A stretch of 64,000 nucleotides of DNA from Candidatus Aminicenantes bacterium (GCA_963754085.1 CAVWFA010000012.1:38638-102637), one strand, 5' to 3'; positions 632 through 62,013 are shown, counted from the stretch's first letter. Translations and numbers: made by a program. Notes: generated from the letters alone by a model not told the origin.

Positions 632-3153
632 ATGAGTGAAACGACGACCGCTGCCCCCGACGGGCGCAGCCCTGTCATGAAACGTCCGCCTTCGGCCTTG
701 TCGGCCAAGCTCAAGACCGCCTTCAACCGCTTTCGCGGCGTTCCCGTCGAAACCGACCTTGCGGCGTATGCGAGGACGGTCCGATCGATCCGCGCGGCGC
801 ACGAGGGCGGGGAGATCGCGGCGATCGCCGACGCCGAGATCGCCCGGCGGGCCGCGGCGCTCCGCCGGCCGCCGGCGGACGGGGCCTCCGTTCCGCCGTC
901 GCGGGAAGACGAGCGCGTGCGCGTCGCCATCTTCGCCCTGGCGCTCGAAGCCGCCCGCCGCGCGACCGGGCTCGACGCCCACGACGTCCAGATCATCGCC
1001 GGTCTGGCCATGACCGACGGCCGGATCGCCGAGCTCCCGACGGGGGAGGGCAAGACGCTGGCGGCGGTGTTCTCCGCCTCTTACTTCGCGCTACTCGGCC
1101 GGCCCGTCCACGTCCTGACCTTCAACGATTACCTGGCCCGCCGCGACGCGGTCTGGATGGGCCCGGCCTACCGCCTCCTCGGCCTGTCCGTCGGCGCCGT
1201 CCAGGAGGCCCCGGACAAGGCCGCCAAGAAGGCCGCCTACGCCTGCGATATCACGTATGCCACCGCCAAGGAGGCCGGCTTCGACTACCTGCGGGATCGG
1301 CTGGCTTACGAGCCCGGCGAACTCGTCCACCGGCCTTTCGCCGTGGCCCTCGTCGATGAGGCCGACTCCATCCTCATCGACGAAGCCCGTATCCCGCTCG
1401 TCATCTCCGGGACCTCCGGAGCGACCGGACCCGATGTCTCGCGGCTGGCCGCCGTCGTCCGGGACCTCGAGCGGGGCCGCGACTTCGTGACGGACGCCGA
1501 GAACGCCAACGTCTTCCCGACCGACGCGGGCATCCGCCGCGTCGAGTCGGCCCTCGGCTGCGGCAACCTGTTCACGCCGGAGAACGAGACGCTCCTGGCC
1601 GCGGTCCACTGCGCCCTCCACGCCGGGCTCCTGCTCGAGCGCGACGTCGATTACATCGTCCGCGACGGCCGCATCGAGATCGTCGACGAGTTCACCGGCC
1701 GGGTCATGGACAAGCGGCATTGGCCCGACGGCCTCCAGGCCGCCGTCGAGGCCAAGGAGGGGGTGCGGCGCGGCTCCGAGGGGCGCATCCTCGGGTCGAT
1801 CACGCTCCAGCACTTCTTCCGGCTCTATCCGACGCTCTGCGGCATGACGGCCACGGCCGAGCCCTCGGCGCGAGAGCTCAAGGAATTCTACGGCCTCGGC
1901 GTCGTCGTCGTGCCGTCCCACCGGCCGTGCGTGCGCCGGGACCTGCCCGACGTCGTTTTCACGCATCGGGAGGCCCGGCGAACGGCCCTCGTCCGGGAGA
2001 TCGCCGCGTGTCGGGCCGCGGGCCGTCCCGTGCTCGTCGGGACGTCGAGCGTCCGGGAATCGGAAGAGCTCGCCGCGGCCCTGACCGGGCGGGCGTCCCC
2101 GTGCGAGGTCCTCAACGCCAAGAACGACGAGCTCGAAGCCGGGATCATCGCCCGGGCCGGCGTCCCGGGCGCCGTGACCATATCGACCAACATGGCCGGG
2201 CGCGGCACGGACATCAAGCTCGGCGGGCCGAACAACCCGGTTGTCGCGGACGAAGAAGAGCACGACCGGGTGGCCGGCCTCGGGGGGCTCATTGTCATCG
2301 GTACGAACCGGCACGAGAGCCTGCGCATCGACAGCCAGCTCCGCGGCCGGGCCGGCCGCCAGGGCGATCCCGGCTCGTCCGGTTCTTCATCAGCCTCGAG
2401 GACGATATCTTCGAGCGCTACGGGCTCACCCGCCGGCTGTTTTCCCGTTACAGGCTCGCGCGAAGCGCCGCTCCCGTCGACAACGAGCTCCTGCGCAAGG
2501 AGATCGTCCACGGCCAGCGTGTCATCGAGGGCCGCAATCTGGACATCCGCCGGGCGCTCTGGGATTATTCGACGCTCGTCGAAACGCAGAGGCGGATCGT
2601 CGCCGGCTGGCGCGACGCGGTCTTCGCTCCCGACGGGGGAGAGGCCGGTTCGCCTTTCCGAGTGGCGCCGGAGCTCGCGGAGGCGGGAACCGCCAAGCTG
2701 GGGCGGGATGCGTTCGAGCGGCTCGTCCGGCGGGCCGCGCTCTACCACATCGACGACGCCTGGACCGACCACCTGGCCTGGCTGGCCGACCTCCGCGAGG
2801 GGATCCACCTCGTCTCCATCGGGCGGAAGGAGCCGCTCCAGGAATTTCAAAAGGCCGCGACCGACGCCTTCCTCGAGCTCGAGGACAGGATCGGGGGCGC
2901 GATCGATGGCACGCTCCGTTCCCTCGTCGCCCGTGAGGGCCCGATCGACCTCGAGGCGGCTGGCCTGAAGGGGCCGTCGTCGACCTGGACCTACCTCGTC
3001 AACGAGGACCAGTTCGGCTGGGGCGTCGAGCTGCTCAAGGGGACGAACATCGGCGTCGCCGCGGGGGCCGCGGCGTTTTACGGCCCCCTGTTCCTCCTGG
3101 CCCTCATCGCCAATCGCTTTAAAAGGAAAGATAAAGAAGGGGTCAAACCTTAA
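632..3153 (+). CDS. secA: Preprotein translocase ATPase SecA. The reading frame is interrupted by a 1-bp deletion near 2378-2383, within GDPGSS|RFFISLEDD. The stop codon lies inside foldback element A2.
   Basis: The N-terminal motor motifs (GEGKTLAAVFSASYFALLGRPVHVLTFNDYLA, DEADSILIDEARIPLVISG) and the downstream GRAGRQGDPGSS...RFFISLEDD segment are in two different frames, which can be joined by adding a single C. A GAGGAGG RBS lies upstream of the ATG at 632. Confidence 0.85.
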
Positions 3154-3233
3154 TTCTTATAATATTTCCACGCAATTGGGACGAGCAAGGCCGTAGGGAT
3201 TTTCGAAAATTATAAGAATTAAGGTTTGACCCC
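3139..3233. repeat. Foldback element family A, copy A2. Its arm type is the same as A1 and A4.
   Basis: GGGGTCAAACCTTAATTCTTATAATATTTCC ... GAAAATTATAAGAATTAAGGTTTGACCCC. The secA stop codon TAA (3151-3153) lies inside the left arm. Confidence 0.85.
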
Positions 3234-8625: not shown

Positions 8626-8712
8626 GGGGGTCAAACCTATACCTTTTTAATTTCATTCTTTGGCGAAGGTCGGGGCTAAGTCGCGAAATTAAAAAGGTAT
8701 AGGTTTGACCCC
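8626..8712. repeat. Foldback element family A, copy A3 (arm type 2, CTATACCTTTTTAATTT).
   Basis: GGGGGTCAAACCTATACCTTTTTAATTTC ... GAAATTAAAAAGGTATAGGTTTGACCCC around a unique 30-nt core. It starts 3 nt after the dctQM stop codon. Confidence 0.85.
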
Positions 8713-13991: not shown

Positions 13992-15484
13992 ATGAGACCC
14001 GAACGCCTTCCTCTTCCCCTTCTCGTGAGCATGGCCGTCGCCGCGGGCGCGCTGTTCGTCGGCGTTTCGCGGGCCCAGGAATTCGCGACAGGCGACGCTC
14101 GTCGAGCGGGCCGTCTGTCTGAAGGACCCCGGACAGAGCTACGCGCCTCTATCTGCCGTCTTCGTTCGACCCGGCGAGGACGTGGCCCGTCCTTTTCCTC
14201 TTCGATTCGGGCGCGCGCGGATCGTTGGCGGTCGCGGCGTTCAGGGAGGCGGCCGAGACCTACGGGTGGATCCTCATCGGCTCCAACAATTCGCACAACG
14301 GTCCCCAGCGGGACAACGCCCTGGCCGCCCAGGCCGTCTGGGCGGACGCTCTGACGCGGCTGCCGATCGACGCCCGGCGCGTCTACGCCTCCGGCTTTTC
14401 CGGCGGGGCCCGCGCCGCGTCGGCCTTTCCGCAATACGTCGGCCGCGCCATCGCGGGAGTCGTCGGCTGCGGCGCCGGGATCGCCACGGGCCTCGATCCC
14501 GGGAGCCTGGACGCGGCGGCCTATTTCGGCCTGGCGGGATTGGCGGACTTCAACTACGGCGAAATGAAGGGCCTCGACCGGGCCCTCGATCCCTCCGGCC
14601 TCCCGCACGCGTTTTACTATTTCGAAGGAACGCACGATTGGCCGGACCCGTCTTCGTGCGCCCGGGCCGCCGGCTGGATGGAAGTCATGGCCATGCAGCA
14701 GGGGCTTCGTCCGACGGACCCCGCGCTGGCCGCAATCGTGATCGAGCGCGAGCTCGAGGAAGCCCGGACGCTCGAGGACGCGGGCCGGATCTATTGGGCC
14801 GGCGAACGGCTCGAGGCCGCGGCGCTCCTGGCCCGGGGACTGGACCTCGACCTGGCGGGCCTGCAGGACCTGCCTTCGCGCGTCGCGAAGCTGAAAGCCC
14901 GGACGGAATACCGGCAATTCCTCGACGCCGAAAAGGCCAGGGACCGGAAGGAGGCGGAATTCCGGACGAGTTTCGGCCGGGCCTTCGGCGCTGTCGAAGA
15001 CCCGGATACGGGCGGCTCGTCAGCCGTGCCGAAGGTGCTTCAGGAGATGCGGATCGGGTTCTTCAAAAAGGACGCGAAAACCGCCAAGACGGTCGAAGAG
15101 CGGAGCCTGGCGTCACGGCTCCTCTTCGAGTTCAGCCTGGCCGCTCAGGCCCGGGCCGTCGCCCTCTATGACCGGCGCGATTTCGGCCGGTCCGCGGCCT
15201 ATGGGGACCTCGCGATCGCCGCATGCGAGGAGGGGCTACCCCGGGAAAAGGGTCTTTATTACAGCAGGGCGAGCGTCGCCGCGGTTTCGGGCGACAGGAA
15301 AACGGCGCTGAAATGCCTGTCCACCGCCGTGGACAAGGGCTTCGTCGATCTCGGGCTCCTCGAAAGGGACGGCGATTTCGATCCGATCAGGGACACGGCA
15401 GGGTTCCGTGAGATCCTGGAACGGGTCAGGCAGGCCCGGGAGAAAAAGGGGGACATGATACCCGTTTCCCAATTCATTAAATAG
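13992..15484 (+). CDS. Secreted alpha/beta-hydrolase (esterase/depolymerase-like) with a C-terminal TPR-like region. Two frameshifts lie near 14095 and 14150.
   Basis: A signal peptide (MRPERLPLPLLVSMAVAAGALFVGVSRAQEF) is followed by ATLVERAVCLKDPGQSYA in the +1 frame, then LYLPSSFDPARTWPVLFLFDSGARGSLAVAAF...GFSGGARAA (nucleophile elbow) in a third frame. Confidence 0.55.
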
Positions 15485-15511
15485 GAAACGGGTATCATGT
15501 CCCCCTTTTTT
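15448..15511. terminator. Family B perfect palindrome (22-bp stem, 14-nt loop) followed by TTTTTT and preceded by an A-run. It probably acts as a bidirectional intrinsic terminator between convergent genes.
   Basis: GGGGGACATGATACCCGTTTCC-caattcattaaata-GGAAACGGGTATCATGTCCCCC-TTTTTT. The left arm also encodes the last 8 codons of the esterase. Confidence 0.7.
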
Positions 15512-30912: not shown

Positions 30913-31008
30913 GGGGTCAAACCTAAATTCTTACAATTTTCGATTCCCTGGGCGCAAGAGGCGACCCTGCCTAGGCGACGAAAATTATAAGAATTTAGGT
31001 TTGACCCC
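30913..31008. repeat. Foldback element family A, copy A4 (arm type 1).
   Basis: GGGGTCAAACCTAAATTCTTACAATTTTCG ... CGAAAATTATAAGAATTTAGGTTTGACCCC around a unique 37-nt core. It lies between the rodZ start and the ftsX stop. Confidence 0.85.
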
Positions 31009-34124: not shown

Positions 34125-34199
34125 GCCCCTGTAGCTCAGTATGGATAGAGCAGCAGATTCCTAATCTGTTTGTCGCCTGTTCGAGTCAGGCCAGGGGCA
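34125..34199 (+). tRNA. tRNA-Arg (anticodon CCT).
   Basis: A hand-folded cloverleaf: 7-bp acceptor stem GCCCCTG/CAGGGGC, D-arm GCTC/GAGC, anticodon stem GCAGA/TCTGT with loop TTCCTAA, T-arm GCCTG-TTCGAGT-CAGGC and discriminator A. Confidence 0.8.
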
Positions 34200-55648: not shown

Positions 55649-55735
55649 GGGGTCAAACCTATACCTTTTTAATTTTTGCCAGATGTGACTCGACCTATGA
55701 GGCAAAAAAACTAAAAAGGTATAGGTTTGACCCCC
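55649..55735. repeat. Foldback element family A, copy A5 (arm type 2).
   Basis: GGGGTCAAACCTATACCTTTTTAATTTTTGCC ... GGCAAAAAAACTAAAAAGGTATAGGTTTGACCCCC around a unique 21-nt core. It lies 7 nt after the upstream gene's stop codon. Confidence 0.85.
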
Positions 55736-55818
55736 TTTGCCAGCCGTCTTGCTATTCGCTCCCTCCCCATATAGAATTCTTTTCCGCGTGACCCCGTGAG
55801 CAACGGAGGAGGAGAGCG

Positions 55819-57765: not shown

Positions 57766-60159
57766 ATGGCGACGTTCGGGAATTTCTCCGAAGACGGCCG
57801 GGAGTTCCTCGTCACCGACGTCCGCACGCCCAGTCCCTGGATCAACTACCTCCAGAACGGCCGCTATTTCGCGACCATCTCCGCCAACGGCGGCGGCATC
57901 TCCTACGACCGTTCGCCGCTCCACGGCCGGATCACGCGCTACCGCATCAACGACGTCCCGCCCGACCGGCCGGGGAAGTACATCTACGTCAAGGACCGCG
58001 ACACGGGGGACGTGTGGAGCCTGACCTGGCAGCCGGTCGGGCACGAGCCCGCGTCGGACTACCGCGCGGCCCACGGCTTCGGCTACACGAGGGTCGAAGC
58101 CGGGGTCGGGGACATCGCCTCGTCGGTCGTGTTCTTCGTCCCGGCCGGCGACGACCGGGAGATCTGGAAGGCGACGCTGCGGAACGCGTCGGGGCGGCGG
58201 CGGCGGCTCACGGTCGTCGGCTATGTCGAGTTCGCGCTGGGCCACGCCCTGGTCGACCTCATCAACCAGTGCGACGATCAGCACTTCAACCGGGTCCGTT
58301 TCGAGAAGGATCTCGACGCGCTCTTCGCCACCAAGACCTATTGGGTGACGGAGACGCGGGGCACCCAGCACCAGGAGAACAAGGAGTGGGACCGCTGGGC
58401 CTTCTTCTCGGTCAACAGGCCCGTCGCGGCCTACGAGACGGTGCGGGAGCGGTTCATCGGGCCGTTCCGCAGCGAGTCCGACCCGGAAGGGCTGGAGAAG
58501 GGCCTCTCGTCGAAGGACATGGACTGCGGCAACGCGGTCGGCGCGCTCCAGGTCGACCTCGAGCTCGGGGCCGGGGAGTCGGCCGACGTCATCTTCTCGC
58601 TCGGGGTCATCGCCAAGCCGGAGTTCGAGCGGACGAAGGCGGAGGTCGTCGGAAAATACCGCGACGCCGGGTCGGTCGACGCGGCCCTGGCCCGCGTCGA
58701 GGCCGAGTGGGACCGCTTCCTCGGGCACACCCGGGCCGCGACGCCGGACCCCGAGGCCGATGTCTTCCTGAACTATTGGATCCCCTATCAGGCCAAGGTC
58801 GCGTTCGACGTCGGCCGCGTGGCCAGCTTCTATTACTGGGGCATCGGGCGCGGCTACGGCTATCGCGACACGGCCCAGGACACGATCGCCATCGTCATCG
58901 CCGACGCGGCCGGGGCCCGGGCGCGAGTGGGGCTCCTGGCCCGGCAGATGCGGCGGGACGGCCAGGTCTATCATCATTTCTACGGCGACGGACAGGGCGA
59001 ATTCACCGGGCACTGCGACGACCCGCTCTGGTTCATCCTGGCCGTTACCGAATACCTCAAGGAGACGGGCGACTTCGGGCTCCTCGACGCGAAGGAGCCG
59101 TTCCTCGACGGGGGCGAGGGGACCGTTCTGGACCACCTCCTGGCGGTGGTTCGCTTCGCCGGGGCGGATCCGGGCCCCCACGGCCTCCCGAAGTTCGGCC
59201 GCGGCGATTGGAACGACACGCTCGATTACATCGGCGGCCGGGACGGCGGCGAGAGCGTCTGGGGCGCCATGTTCTATGTCGCCATGCTCAACCGGCTCAT
59301 CGAGCTGCTGGAGGTCCTGAAGGCGCCGGAGAAGGTCCCCGACGTCTGTGCGCTGAGGGACCGGCTGGTCACGGCGATCGAGACCCACGCCTGGGACGGC
59401 GAGTGGTACGTGAGGGCCTTCGGCGAGGCCGGCCGGAAGATCGGTTCGAAGCCGAACCGGTACGGGCAGATCTTCATCAACACCCAGAGCTGGGCCGTCA
59501 TCGCCGGGCTGCCGGACCGGGACCGGCTGGCCGCGGCCATGGGCAGCCTCCGCGACCGGCTCGATACGCCCTACGGGCCGAAGATCTGCGCCCCGGCTTT
59601 CCGCGAGATCGACCCGACGATCGGCCTCATCACCCGGTGCATTTGGGGCAAGAAGGAGAACGGGGCCGTCTTCTGCCATCCGGCGGCGTGGGTCGTCCAG
59701 GCGTGGTGCCTCCTGGGGTCGGGGGATGCGGCCTTCGAGACATTCAAAAAGCTCTTGCCGGGCCGGATCGACCAAACGACCTTCTCGGCCGAGCCCTACG
59801 TCTACTCGCAATACATCACGAGCGACGAGCACGAAACGGCCGGAAAGGCCAGCCATTCCTGGCAGACCGGCACGGCCGCGTGGATGTACCGGGTGGCCTA
59901 CGACCACATCCTGGGCCTGCGGCCGTCGTATGAGGGGTTGGTCATCGATCCCGTCATCCCGGCGTCGTGGCCGGGGTTCAAGGCCGAGCGGGTCTTCCGC
60001 GGGGCGCGCTACCTCGTCGAAGTCGAGAACCCCGAAGGCGTCATGTCGGGGGTCGCGTCGATCGACGTCGACGGCAGGCCGATCGACGGCAAGATCATCG
60101 CGCCCCGGCCGGCCGGCACGGTCTGCCGGGTCTCCGTCAAAATGGGGAGGACCGCATGA
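57766..60159 (+). CDS. GH94-family glycoside phosphorylase (cellobiose/chitobiose/cellobionate-phosphorylase-like).
   Basis: A 797-aa protein with GDWNDTLD and the (alpha/alpha)6 catalytic region. Confidence 0.7.
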   Translation: MATFGNFSEDGREFLVTDVRTPSPWINYLQNGRYFATISANGGGISYDRSPLHGRITRYRINDVPPDRPGKYIYVKDRDTGDVWSLTWQPVGHEPASDYRAAHGFGYTRVEAGVGDIASSVVFFVPAGDDREIWKATLRNASGRRRRLTVVGYVEFALGHALVDLINQCDDQHFNRVRFEKDLDALFATKTYWVTETRGTQHQENKEWDRWAFFSVNRPVAAYETVRERFIGPFRSESDPEGLEKGLSSKDMDCGNAVGALQVDLELGAGESADVIFSLGVIAKPEFERTKAEVVGKYRDAGSVDAALARVEAEWDRFLGHTRAATPDPEADVFLNYWIPYQAKVAFDVGRVASFYYWGIGRGYGYRDTAQDTIAIVIADAAGARARVGLLARQMRRDGQVYHHFYGDGQGEFTGHCDDPLWFILAVTEYLKETGDFGLLDAKEPFLDGGEGTVLDHLLAVVRFAGADPGPHGLPKFGRGDWNDTLDYIGGRDGGESVWGAMFYVAMLNRLIELLEVLKAPEKVPDVCALRDRLVTAIETHAWDGEWYVRAFGEAGRKIGSKPNRYGQIFINTQSWAVIAGLPDRDRLAAAMGSLRDRLDTPYGPKICAPAFREIDPTIGLITRCIWGKKENGAVFCHPAAWVVQAWCLLGSGDAAFETFKKLLPGRIDQTTFSAEPYVYSQYITSDEHETAGKASHSWQTGTAAWMYRVAYDHILGLRPSYEGLVIDPVIPASWPGFKAERVFRGARYLVEVENPEGVMSGVASIDVDGRPIDGKIIAPRPAGTVCRVSVKMGRTA

Positions 60160-61172
60160 ACAACAAAAAGGGAGGGACCCTGCGCCGGGATCCGTCCAAT
60201 CCGATCCTGACCCGGGCGGACCTGCCGGACATCCCGCCTGGTCTCATGGACGCCACTTCGGTGTTCAACCCGGGCGCGGTCAAGGCCGCCGGGATCACCT
60301 ATCTCGTCCTCCGCGTCCAGGCCCGGTCGCGCGAGACCTTCATGGTCATGGCCGAGAGCGCCGACGGCGTCCGTTTCGTCGTCCGCCCGGAGATCGTGGA
60401 CCTCAAGGGGATCGAACAGGTCCGGGAGAGGATCTATCACGTCTATGACGGCCGCATCACCCGGCTCGAGGGGGTCCATTACGTCATGTTCGCCATGGAC
60501 ATGGACGGCGGCTGCCGGCTGGGACTGGCCCGGACGGACGACCTCCGGGAGTTCCGGTTCATGGGCGTCACGTCGACCGACGACGTCCGCAACGGCGTCC
60601 TGTTCCCGGAGAAGATCGGAGGCCTGTACCTCAGGCTCGAGCGGCCCAACAAGGCCAAGCTCGAAGGCGGCCCGACCACGGGCTCGGAGATCTGGCTGGC
60701 CGGCTCGGACGATCTGCTCACCTGGCGGCGGCTCGGCCCGGTCATGGGCGGGCGCTTCCACTACTGGGACGAGTTCATCGGCTCGGGGCCGCCGCCGGTC
60801 AAGACCCGGAGCGGCTGGCTGCATGTCTATCACGGCGTGGCGACGCATTTCGGCAGCGCCAACATCTACCAGGCCGGGGTCTCCCTGCTCGACCTTCGCG
60901 ATCCGGCCAAGGTCCTGGGCCGCTCCCGGGGCAACATCCTCGAGCCGCGGGAGCCCTACGAGCTCTGCGGCCAGGTCCCCAACGTGGTCTTCCCCTCGGG
61001 CCTGGTGGTCGAGGACTTCGACGCCGAGGGCTTCGCCCTGCCCTCGAGCCCGGTCAAGGTCTACTACGGCGCCGCCGACACCGTGGTGGGCCTGGCCGTG
61101 ACGACGGTCGGCGAGCTCCTCGACGCCTGCGGCGATCCCGGATGGGGTCAAACCCGGGAGCAAGCTTCTTAA
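60156..61172 (+). CDS. GH130-family glycoside phosphorylase (beta-mannoside phosphorylase-like).
   Basis: A 338-aa five-bladed beta-propeller-like sequence. Its start overlaps the GH94 stop (ATGA). Confidence 0.65.
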   Translation: MNNKKGGTLRRDPSNPILTRADLPDIPPGLMDATSVFNPGAVKAAGITYLVLRVQARSRETFMVMAESADGVRFVVRPEIVDLKGIEQVRERIYHVYDGRITRLEGVHYVMFAMDMDGGCRLGLARTDDLREFRFMGVTSTDDVRNGVLFPEKIGGLYLRLERPNKAKLEGGPTTGSEIWLAGSDDLLTWRRLGPVMGGRFHYWDEFIGSGPPPVKTRSGWLHVYHGVATHFGSANIYQAGVSLLDLRDPAKVLGRSRGNILEPREPYELCGQVPNVVFPSGLVVEDFDAEGFALPSSPVKVYYGAADTVVGLAVTTVGELLDACGDPGWGQTREQAS

Positions 61173-61175
61173 GAC

Positions 61176-61268
61176 GGGGTCAAACCTCCATTTTTACAGT
61201 TTCCCGCCGTATCGCCCCGAGCGCCTGGCAACGCGTTCGGGAAACTGTAAAAATGGAGGTTTGACCCC
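61176..61268. repeat. Foldback element family A, copy A6 (arm type 3). It is nested inside an outer 21-22-bp inverted repeat that itself starts GGGGTCAAACC (61144-61165 and 61285-61305).
   Basis: GGGGTCAAACCTCCATTTTTACAGTTTCCCG ... CGGGAAACTGTAAAAATGGAGGTTTGACCCC. The outer repeat is GGGGTCAAACCCGGGAGCAAGC ... GCTTGCTCCCGGTTTGACCCC. Confidence 0.85.
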
Positions 61269-61356
61269 GTCTGAAAATCCCCGGCTTGCTCCCGGTTTGA
61301 CCCCTTCTTATTTATATGCTAAAAAAGAGGTTCGATCCGGCCGTTTGGAGAGAACC

Positions 61357-62013
61357 ATGAAGAGAACGGAGAGGCATCACCTCAAAGAAGACGAGATGGC
61401 CACCGGCGTCCATTGGCTCGTCGAGCTCTATCAGACCTACAAGCGCGAGATCACCCTCGTCGCCGGGGCGCTCGTCCTCGCCGCCGTCGTCTTCAGCGGG
61501 CTCCTGATCATCCGCTCCCAAACCCGGAGCGTCCGGAGCCGGGCCATTGGCGAGGTCATGGACCTGGCCGCCGAAGTCGCCCAGAAGCCCGAGAAGCTGG
61601 CCGATCTCGAGAAGCTGGCTGCCAAGGGGCGGACATCGCGCCTGGCCAATATGGAGCTGGCCAAGTATTGGGCCGAGAAGAGCGATTGGGCCAAGGCCGA
61701 ATCCTATCTGGGCAAGCTCCCGGCCGGACCCAAGGACCTCCTCTATTACCAGGCCGAGGACCTCAAAGCCCAGATCGCGATGGGCCGCAAGGACTACGAC
61801 AAGGCCATCGCCATCTACACGAAGATCGGCGACGAGAAGCCCGAGACCTACCCCCTCGACGCCGCCCGGTTCCGCCTGGCCGAATGCCACGAGCTCAAGG
61901 GCGACGCCGCGACGGCCCTGGAGCTCTACAAGAAGCTCCAGACGGAGTTCCCCCAGTCCTATTTCGGCTACGAGGCCTCCCTCAAGCTCAGCAAGCTCGA
62001 GGCCCGGAGATAG
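61357..62013 (+). CDS. TPR-like membrane-anchored protein (YfgM-like).
   Basis: An N-terminal TM segment is followed by TPR-like repeats. Confidence 0.5.
   Translation: MKRTERHHLKEDEMATGVHWLVELYQTYKREITLVAGALVLAAVVFSGLLIIRSQTRSVRSRAIGEVMDLAAEVAQKPEKLADLEKLAAKGRTSRLANMELAKYWAEKSDWAKAESYLGKLPAGPKDLLYYQAEDLKAQIAMGRKDYDKAIAIYTKIGDEKPETYPLDAARFRLAECHELKGDAATALELYKKLQTEFPQSYFGYEASLKLSKLEARR

Follow-up and report, generated by a model that had tools for sequence, protein, structure and literature searches.

The 64-kb stretch of DNA analysed here (Candidatus Aminicenantes bacterium, GCA_963754085.1 CAVWFA010000012.1:38638-102637; from here on the window) contains a complete hairpin element, A6, between a GH130 gene and the gene of a TPR-repeat protein, and this element is enclosed by an outer inverted repeat. 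Both belong to one family of palindromic repeats with a common 11-nt terminus, GGGGTCAAACC at the left end and GGTTTGACCCC at the right. The outer termini are the ends of an old resident of this intergenic site, the interior of which is highly variable among relatives. The features of the locus are given below; L001, L002 and so on are labels of related or fetched loci and contigs.

60156-61172, + strand: GH130 gene (beta-1,4-mannooligosaccharide phosphorylase family; Pfam PF04041, E = 1.2e-42, residues 9-325 of 338)
61144-61154, + strand: outer left terminus GGGGTCAAACC, whose orthologue is the left end of the single element of L001, L002 and L005
61155-61165, + strand: outer left arm CGGGAGCAAGC, pairing with 61284-61293
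61166-61170, + strand: spacer TTCTT, in which the T at 61170 opens the GH130 stop codon TAA
61171-61273, + strand: A6 with its extended inverted repeat (AAGAC + GGGGTCAAACC + 20-nt arm + 31-nt loop + 20-nt arm + GGTTTGACCCC + GTCTG)
61274-61283, + strand: spacer AAAATCCCCG, homologous to the right shell of L133
61284-61293, + strand: outer right arm GCTTGCTCCC, partner of the outer left arm
61294-61304, + strand: outer right terminus GGTTTGACCCC, containing TTGACC (61297-61302), the putative -35 hexamer of the TPR gene
61317-61325, + strand: putative extended -10, TGC-TAAAAA, 17 nt downstream of TTGACC
61357-62013, + strand: TPR-repeat protein gene (Pfam TPR_6 / TPR_19 / TPR_21), syntenic in all relatives

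Read directly in the sequence, the whole compound structure is 161 nt long and the outer pair (61144-61165 and 61284-61304) brackets a complete A6, as claimed in a preliminary description of the window, although the right arm had been placed there one nucleotide too high (61285-61305). The outer arms are complementary save for one absent G/C, that is, a single 1-nt indel (22 against 21 nt). A6 has arms of 38 nt (61169-61206 and 61238-61275), 97% complementary, around a loop of 31 nt. By folding, a region of 181 nt gave a single two-tier hairpin (-116.9 kcal/mol, z = -15.1) and A6 alone a DNA fold of -46.2 kcal/mol (z = -12.5). When 61171-61273 was deleted in silico a short hairpin was left (-26 kcal/mol, z = -8.6), similar to the stand-alone short element of L008. 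In the window the 11-mer terminus was counted 14 times, where 1.35 occurrences would be expected, and none of 100 shuffles reached 14. Given this excess and the z-score of the complete fold, the two-tier structure is not due to chance.

The gene order GH94-GH130-element-TPR-ferredoxin-M50 is conserved, and the GH130-TPR locus is common to about 20 related genomes. In the closest relative, L001, which has 96-97% nucleotide identity to the window in both flanking genes, there is one element. Both of its ends coincide exactly with the outer termini of the window and its interior is unrelated. The outer termini sit at single-element ends in further species as well; the left one is also present in L002 and L005 and, in a degenerate form, in L014, L070, L207 and L213. 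The interiors found at this locus in the other relatives were the following (A2 is another copy in the window, listed further on).

L002, 10992-11208: one left arm and then three tandem units of loop + right arm + TTCTTTTC, with a period of 67 nt
L005, L207 and L070: interior of the L001 type, in varied decay
L004, L008 and L016: other single elements directly after the ancestral stop (...EPP[LI] and stop codon); that of L008 is a short GC-rich stem
L006: element of the A2 type whose loop contains a nested hairpin from another family; a further right terminus is also present
L205 and L206: element of the A6 type, likewise flanked by AAGAC/GTCTG; a degenerate outer left terminus lies before it and one right terminus only after it
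L007, L012 and L019: right terminus alone retained
L213: degenerate left terminus and right terminus alone retained

The hairpin is absent from this locus in L007, L012 and L213, and the state of L002 is a one-sided amplification of half an element. The comparison of orthologous loci that had been proposed for this site therefore reveals an occupancy that varies between single, tandem, nested and deleted; the interior differs in almost every species. Since the outer termini, and not the inner ones, are shared with relatives, the outer pair is the older of the two, and the suggestion that it represents a second family member is borne out by the exact position of its termini at the ends of single elements in L001 and other species. 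Two other readings of the L001 interior were dropped, one as an orthologue of A6 (the right arms are similar) and one as hiding a deleted inner terminus in its left arm. Comparison with L002, L005 and L207 showed that L001 simply carries another subfamily. The GH94 gene is called in two pieces in L001 (7609-10004) and L004 (5651-9980), as is the SSF gene in L004, while both are intact in the window and L002; these split calls are possible frameshifts or assembly errors.

The preliminary description had also considered a two-tier unit in place of a nested insertion. Such a composite, with shell and inner hairpin conserved or moving as one, is highly improbable. Halves of the shell do recur at unrelated loci, the right half in L133 (GAAA..CCCCGGCTTGC.CCCGGTTTGACCCCTTCTTATTT) and the left half in L176 (GGGGTCAAACC..GGGGGCAAGCCTCTTAAGAG), each around an inner element. 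However, these two contigs hold one half each and their inner elements differ. Even with up to 3 mismatches allowed, the 22-mer outer arm is unique in the window, and its exact sequence had 0 matches in the metagenome and viral (relaxed base) collections. The 160-nt structure was seen at none of the orthologous loci, all of which differ, and the Rfam scan gave no match to it, the sole match in the window being a tRNA gene (34125-34199). As a conserved unit the two-tier alternative is thus refuted, and the search for further copies of the outer repeat yielded the two halves only.

Nesting was found elsewhere too. Like-oriented pairs of termini 10-40 nt apart occur in at least 120 contigs, many of them plain tandem duplications of terminus and flank. 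Among the contigs listed, six are clean nests, with the order left-left...right-right (L120, L133, L136, L157, L166 and L176); to these can be added L109, where an outer end has decayed. The outer arms of these seven nests are unrelated and G+C-rich, and their inner elements are also found in other contexts. L166 is the GH130-TPR locus of another species, with a different inner element. In L096/L203 an outer right terminus is still joined to 8 nt of arm sequence from another subfamily, the remnant of a replaced occupant. Clusters of the same kind have been noted for Pseudomonas REPINs (Bertels & Rainey 2011, PMC3116915).

Doubled termini being so common, a reiteration of termini in place remains a live rival, even if we consider it unlikely. 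The outer tier would then be A6's own termini, duplicated by replication slippage or by a transposase 'stutter' and diverged afterwards, and the whole would be one element. Plain tandem duplications of terminus plus flank, as in L093, L099, L154, L175, L184, L192 and L202, are in its favour, and so are the 11-mer arrays that lie in tandem on either side of a hairpin in L091, L116, L102 and L164 and the duplicated termini that typically flank transposase genes. Within the outer left arm, GGGAGCAAGC looks like a decayed terminus (7/10 positions), and the homologous segment of L176 (GGGGGCAAGCC) matches the terminus at 9/11 positions. However, the sequences next to the two tiers are unrelated. 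On the left side GGAT and CGGGAG flank the outer terminus and AGAC and TCCATT the inner one; on the right side the inner terminus lies between ATGGA and GTCTG and the outer one between CTCCC and TTCTT. With flanks that differ, a simple tandem duplication was rejected as the origin of the doubled termini of the window. It is also the outer termini, not the inner, that are common to relatives, indicating that they are the older pair, and the inner element has the full AAGAC/GTCTG extended repeat of an independent copy.

Going beyond the preliminary description, we found that the outer termini persist as coding sequence on the left and as a putative -35 box on the right. The GH130 open reading frame (ORF) ends in ...GDPGWGQTREQAS and its stop codon TAA (61170-61172) lies directly ahead of A6. 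The last 10 codons (GWGQTREQAS, then the stop) come from the outer left arm and the spacer, in agreement with the preliminary claim that this arm encodes the end of the protein. Among the GH130 homologues P0001-P0120 this tail was found in the window alone. The ancestral tail is ...EPP[LI], and the terminus is translated in at least two frames, giving GWGQT, GWGQA or QWGHT in one and GVKS or GVKP in another. From this comparison, a small frame change in one clade appears to have removed the ancestral stop, the terminus being read since then as C-terminal codons.

At the other end, the right terminus would provide the TPR gene with the -35 box of an extended -10 promoter. In 21/21 loci the region upstream of this gene has TTGACC (TTGGCA in the most distant one), a spacer of 16-18 nt and TA[AC]A[AT]N with TG at -15/-14. 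The spacer measures 17 nt in 19 of the 21 although its sequence diverges, and the motif is kept in the hairpin-less loci too (L007, L012, L019 and L213). A strict sigma-70 consensus scan calls no promoter here, the -10 TAAAAA having no T at position 6, and it is because of the comparative pattern of the 21 loci alone that we retain the promoter reading. A promoter-like motif (TTGCTA-18 nt-TAGAAT) was also seen downstream of another family copy, A5 (55735-55800 and orthologues), before an SSF transporter gene in all relatives; there the element is placed between a stop codon and a separate promoter.

These positions, directly past stop codons and ahead of the next promoter, would also be expected of a purely regulatory host hairpin, i.e. 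a terminator or mRNA-stabilising stem-loop that is under selection together with a promoter, the likeness among copies reflecting shared function. The A-rich and T-rich flanks (AAGA-N / N'-TCTT) on a G+C-rich stem base do resemble a bidirectional terminator, and the right terminus coincides with the -35 box. Nevertheless we give this explanation hardly any credence, because 27-30-nt arms reach 100% identity at unrelated loci and in species with a gene identity of ~84%, the same termini flank transposase genes (see below), and the structure is not conserved across orthologous loci. Nor did a terminator scan support it: the consensus scan for Rho-independent terminators gave only a 5-bp mini-hairpin inside the terminus, and the long stems are followed by TTCTT and not by a proper T-tract. 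A regulatory side-effect of the elements is compatible with a mobile origin and fits within it without constituting an alternative.

The window holds six full copies of the family besides the outer pair, and these share termini and arms. The five other than A6, to which no strand is assigned, are:

254-345: A1
3139-3233: A2
8627-8712: A3, beginning 4 nt past the stop codon of a + strand gene
30913-31008: A4
55649-55734: A5, beginning 8 nt past a stop codon

An exact look-up of the window's GH130 protein gave no record in the collections, but relatives retrieved with this protein assign the organism to Candidatus Aminicenantes, and the family is present in many Candidatus Aminicenantes metagenome-assembled genomes (MAGs). 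From 31 copies in Aminicenantes loci (median length 92 nt, stem 28 bp, loop 32 nt) the consensus (T)AAGA-N-GGGGTCAAACC-T-(~17-nt A+T-rich arm)-(loop)-(arm')-A-GGTTTGACCCC-N'-TCTT was obtained. The arms are A+T-rich although the genome has 66% G+C. The flanks AAGA-N and N'-TCTT are inverted, with complementary N positions in many copies. They are not direct repeats, so that the family copies show no direct target-site duplication, the mark of a miniature inverted-repeat transposable element of a DDE insertion sequence. The GTAG tag of classical REP sequences is absent as well, the family ends being AAGA-N-GGGGTCAAACC. In published full texts the terminus sequence gave unrelated primer matches only.

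Several further observations on repeats were made. Among A1-A5 and copies in L001, L006, L103 and L133, members of any one subfamily have arms of 27-30 nt in common, with up to 100% identity from species to species, and G+C-rich loops of 25-40 nt that are dissimilar. By contrast, the loop is conserved in short subfamilies (L176 / L112 / L183). The ends AAGA-N-GGGACC(N)GGT... and ...ACC(N)GGTCCC-N-TCTT characterise a second hairpin family (L006:11030-11100, and downstream of GH130 in L010 and L018). One GGGGTCAAACC element, in L006, has a hairpin of this second family nested in its loop; in the window the second family is not above chance. Head-to-tail arrays of 3-9 copies of the 11-mer terminus (GGGGTCAAACC / GGGGTCAGACC) were seen in other G+C-rich genomes (L091:2170-2310, L116:313-402, L102:4-100 and L164:105-192), those of L091 and L116 being mirrored on either side of a hairpin. 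L134:5669-6063 is a tandem array of GGTTTGACCCC + caggtcacccagtatgtgaat with a period of ~32 nt and at least 12 units, 8 of them with the exact terminus. Finally, the window contains at 15443-15510 (AAAAAGGGGGACATGATACCCGTTTCCCAATT and its complement) an unrelated hairpin with a near-perfect stem of 32 bp, a loop of 4 nt and A5/T5 flanks. Its appearance suggests a bidirectional terminator or a copy from a different repeat family.

Among those fetched by the terminus pattern, at least 14 metagenome contigs contain a unit of 1.03-1.15 kb that is delimited by the family termini GGGGTCAAACC...GGTTTGACCCC, with terminal inverted repeats of 25-30 nt. These units encode proteins of 310-335 amino acids that match Pfam Y1_Tnp (E = 1e-10 to 1e-15) and have a weak Bac_DnaA_C match at the C-terminus. 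The transposase is thus of the Y1 HUH type and not DDE. With NCBIfam NF047646 (REP-associated tyrosine transposase) the scores were 88.8 bits for L193, 77.6 for L181 and 48.7 for L161, and L193 passes the cut-off of 80. The published TIRYT motif GGGGWSAS agrees with GGGGTCAA at 7/8 positions, the last one being A and not G or C. Since the same termini flank Y1 tyrosine-transposase genes of the RAYT/TIRYT type, the family would belong to the known REPIN-like or 'TIRtron' repeats, and the hairpins of the window would be non-autonomous REPIN-like dimers of such a system. A homologue search with the L181 transposase retrieved, among named sequences, Synergistales, Thermovirgaceae and one Methanomethylovorans MAG. 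Its sole link to Aminicenantes is in sequence, the arm TACGCTTTTGAC differing from the L018 arm TACACTTTTCAC at 2/12 positions. Near-identical TIRYT proteins (P0121-P0240, homologues of that of L181) were found on many contigs per cluster, up to 33, which suggests multi-copy behaviour like that of insertion sequences and horizontal spread in this clade.

The window and L001 have another locus in common, between the stop of a 447-aa ORF and the SSF promoter. It is occupied by A5, of the TATACC type, in the window and by an element of the TCAAATTC type in L001, while L004 is without an element there. Both of the loci (2/2) shared by these two genomes therefore carry unrelated interiors. Between L205 and L206, 6/134 nt differ in the element region (L205:1337-1470) against 3/978 upstream and 1/239 downstream, i.e. 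a divergence ~13-fold higher inside the element than in its flanks. The hairpin could be a local hot spot either of change or of assembly error. The mobility of the family proposed earlier is supported by the termini that flank RAYT/TIRYT genes and by the differences in occupancy and content between genomes 96-97% identical, which make these repeats probably mobile. As for elements inserting into each other, nests recur, and the entry of A6 into this particular shell, no unfilled version of which was found, would be one such case.

One way of accounting for the contrast between fixed ends and changing interiors is that the termini act as landing pads for a cassette-like exchange, in which a TIRYT-type transposase, or recombination primed by the 11-nt terminus, swaps the interiors and leaves the ends in place. 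The unrelated interiors at both shared loci, the ~13-fold divergence between L205 and L206 and the arms that are identical across species around unrelated loops all suggest this idea, which we nonetheless rate as decidedly doubtful. If true, turnover would far outpace the divergence of the flanking genes, inverted pairs of arms could form anew around unique sequence, and the mode would be unlike the slow, vertical duplication of whole elements described so far for REPINs.

On balance we consider it probable that the structure is a compound of two REPIN-like members, with A6 nested in an old resident whose ends are pinned by host functions while its interior turns over. The outer pair would be what remains of a resident element of the GH130-TPR intergenic site, held on the left as C-terminal codons of GH130 and on the right as the -35 hexamer TTGACC of the TPR gene. 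New family members would enter or adjoin this resident, their target probably being the single-stranded loop of the extruded hairpin, as expected of a single-strand-specific HUH transposase. The product may then be trimmed by slippage between termini in direct repeat. A6 would be one such insertion, and the window the untrimmed, doubly occupied state. We favour insertion followed by trimming because nests recur, short G+C-rich elements such as that of L008 exist, the deletion of A6 leaves a similar hairpin, and L096/L203 preserve a remnant.

A number of results weigh against this interpretation. No second copy of the exact outer arm, empty or filled, came out of the metagenome and viral collections, and among the loci compared the half-shells of L133 and L176, both filled, were all that could be found. 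The shell arms CGGGAGCAAGC are present in none of the orthologous loci and the interior of the closest relative is unrelated; only the 11-nt termini of the outer element are therefore ancient. No stand-alone copy of the A6 type was found at another locus, the only other ones being those of L205/L206 at the same locus; the A6 interior matched only itself among all loci compared (blastn-short) and the A6 arm pattern had 0 matches in viral contigs. The presence of an A6-type element in L205/L206 implies that the A6 event is old or repeated and, since the much closer L001 does not have it, two arrivals or a replacement in L001 are needed. Copies of the same subfamily with common arms but unrelated loops are not what a simple copy-and-paste of whole elements predicts. 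Lastly, neither the window nor ~0.6 Mb of Aminicenantes loci yielded a transposase gene by tblastn, and the transposases found belong to other taxa wherever named (Synergistales and others).

In their general architecture the elements resemble the REPINs associated with RAYT genes (Bertels & Rainey 2011, PMC3116915), which are short extragenic hairpins, each built from two copies of a conserved sequence in inverted orientation, numerous in each genome, with the same sequence flanking a Y1 HUH transposase gene and with single remnants left by decay. Classical REP sequences carry a GTAG (or CGTC) tetranucleotide at one end of an imperfect palindrome of 20-40 nt (Di Nocera et al. 2013, PMC3733652), whereas here the tag is missing and the conserved part is the 11-nt terminus with its AAGA-N flank. 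Other differences from REPINs are the A+T-rich arms, the unrelated loops of otherwise identical copies, and an association known from transposases of other contigs and not from this genome's own. Turnover also looks faster, on the two loci available, than in the slow, vertical dynamics of the Pseudomonas REPINs. TIRtrons are units of ~1 kb encoding TIRYT proteins, with the terminal motif GGGGWSAS, and an acidobacterial TIRYT group has been described (Di Nocera et al. 2013, PMC3733652); Quentin et al. 2018 (PMC6006769) assign TIRYT to subclass 2.1 of TnpA-REP, which has a DnaA-like C-terminal domain. The genes of 310-335 codons, the long terminal inverted repeats starting with GGGG(T)(C)A, the weak Bac_DnaA_C match and the occurrence of terminal-repeat families as singles, dimers and groups all agree with TIRtrons, and the last position of the motif does not. 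The families in these two papers are moderately abundant, and nested states, promoter use and coding use are not described in the parts that we consulted.

Other repeats show individual features of this locus. Rickettsia RPEs occur within ORFs (Di Nocera et al. 2013, PMC3733652), and here too an element end is translated in a host protein. The conserved terminus, the arms and the spacers of the window form a left-left...right-right, nested order. This differs from the BIMEs of E. coli, mosaic clusters in which REP sequences alternate in orientation with defined linkers, although several palindromic units likewise share one intergenic site. Insertion sequences and Correia elements provide outward -35 boxes from their ends, comparable to an element end that would serve as the -35 of a neighbouring gene. 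The Correia, insertion sequence and RPE families and their transposition chemistries differ, and at this locus both effects would be found at the two ends of one old element.

Nested REPIN insertions and families of terminal inverted repeats with tyrosine transposases are already in the literature, and this is no new kind of system. The results would extend the RAYT/TIRYT-associated hairpin repeats to Candidatus Aminicenantes, an uncultivated lineage. Their main value lies in an unusually well-resolved comparative series, one locus across ~20 species at which a repeat appears to have been domesticated at both ends, as a protein tail and as a putative -35 box, while its interior was repeatedly replaced. 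As such, the locus offers a natural series for how elements of this kind may insert into one another, be trimmed and rewire the neighbouring genes.

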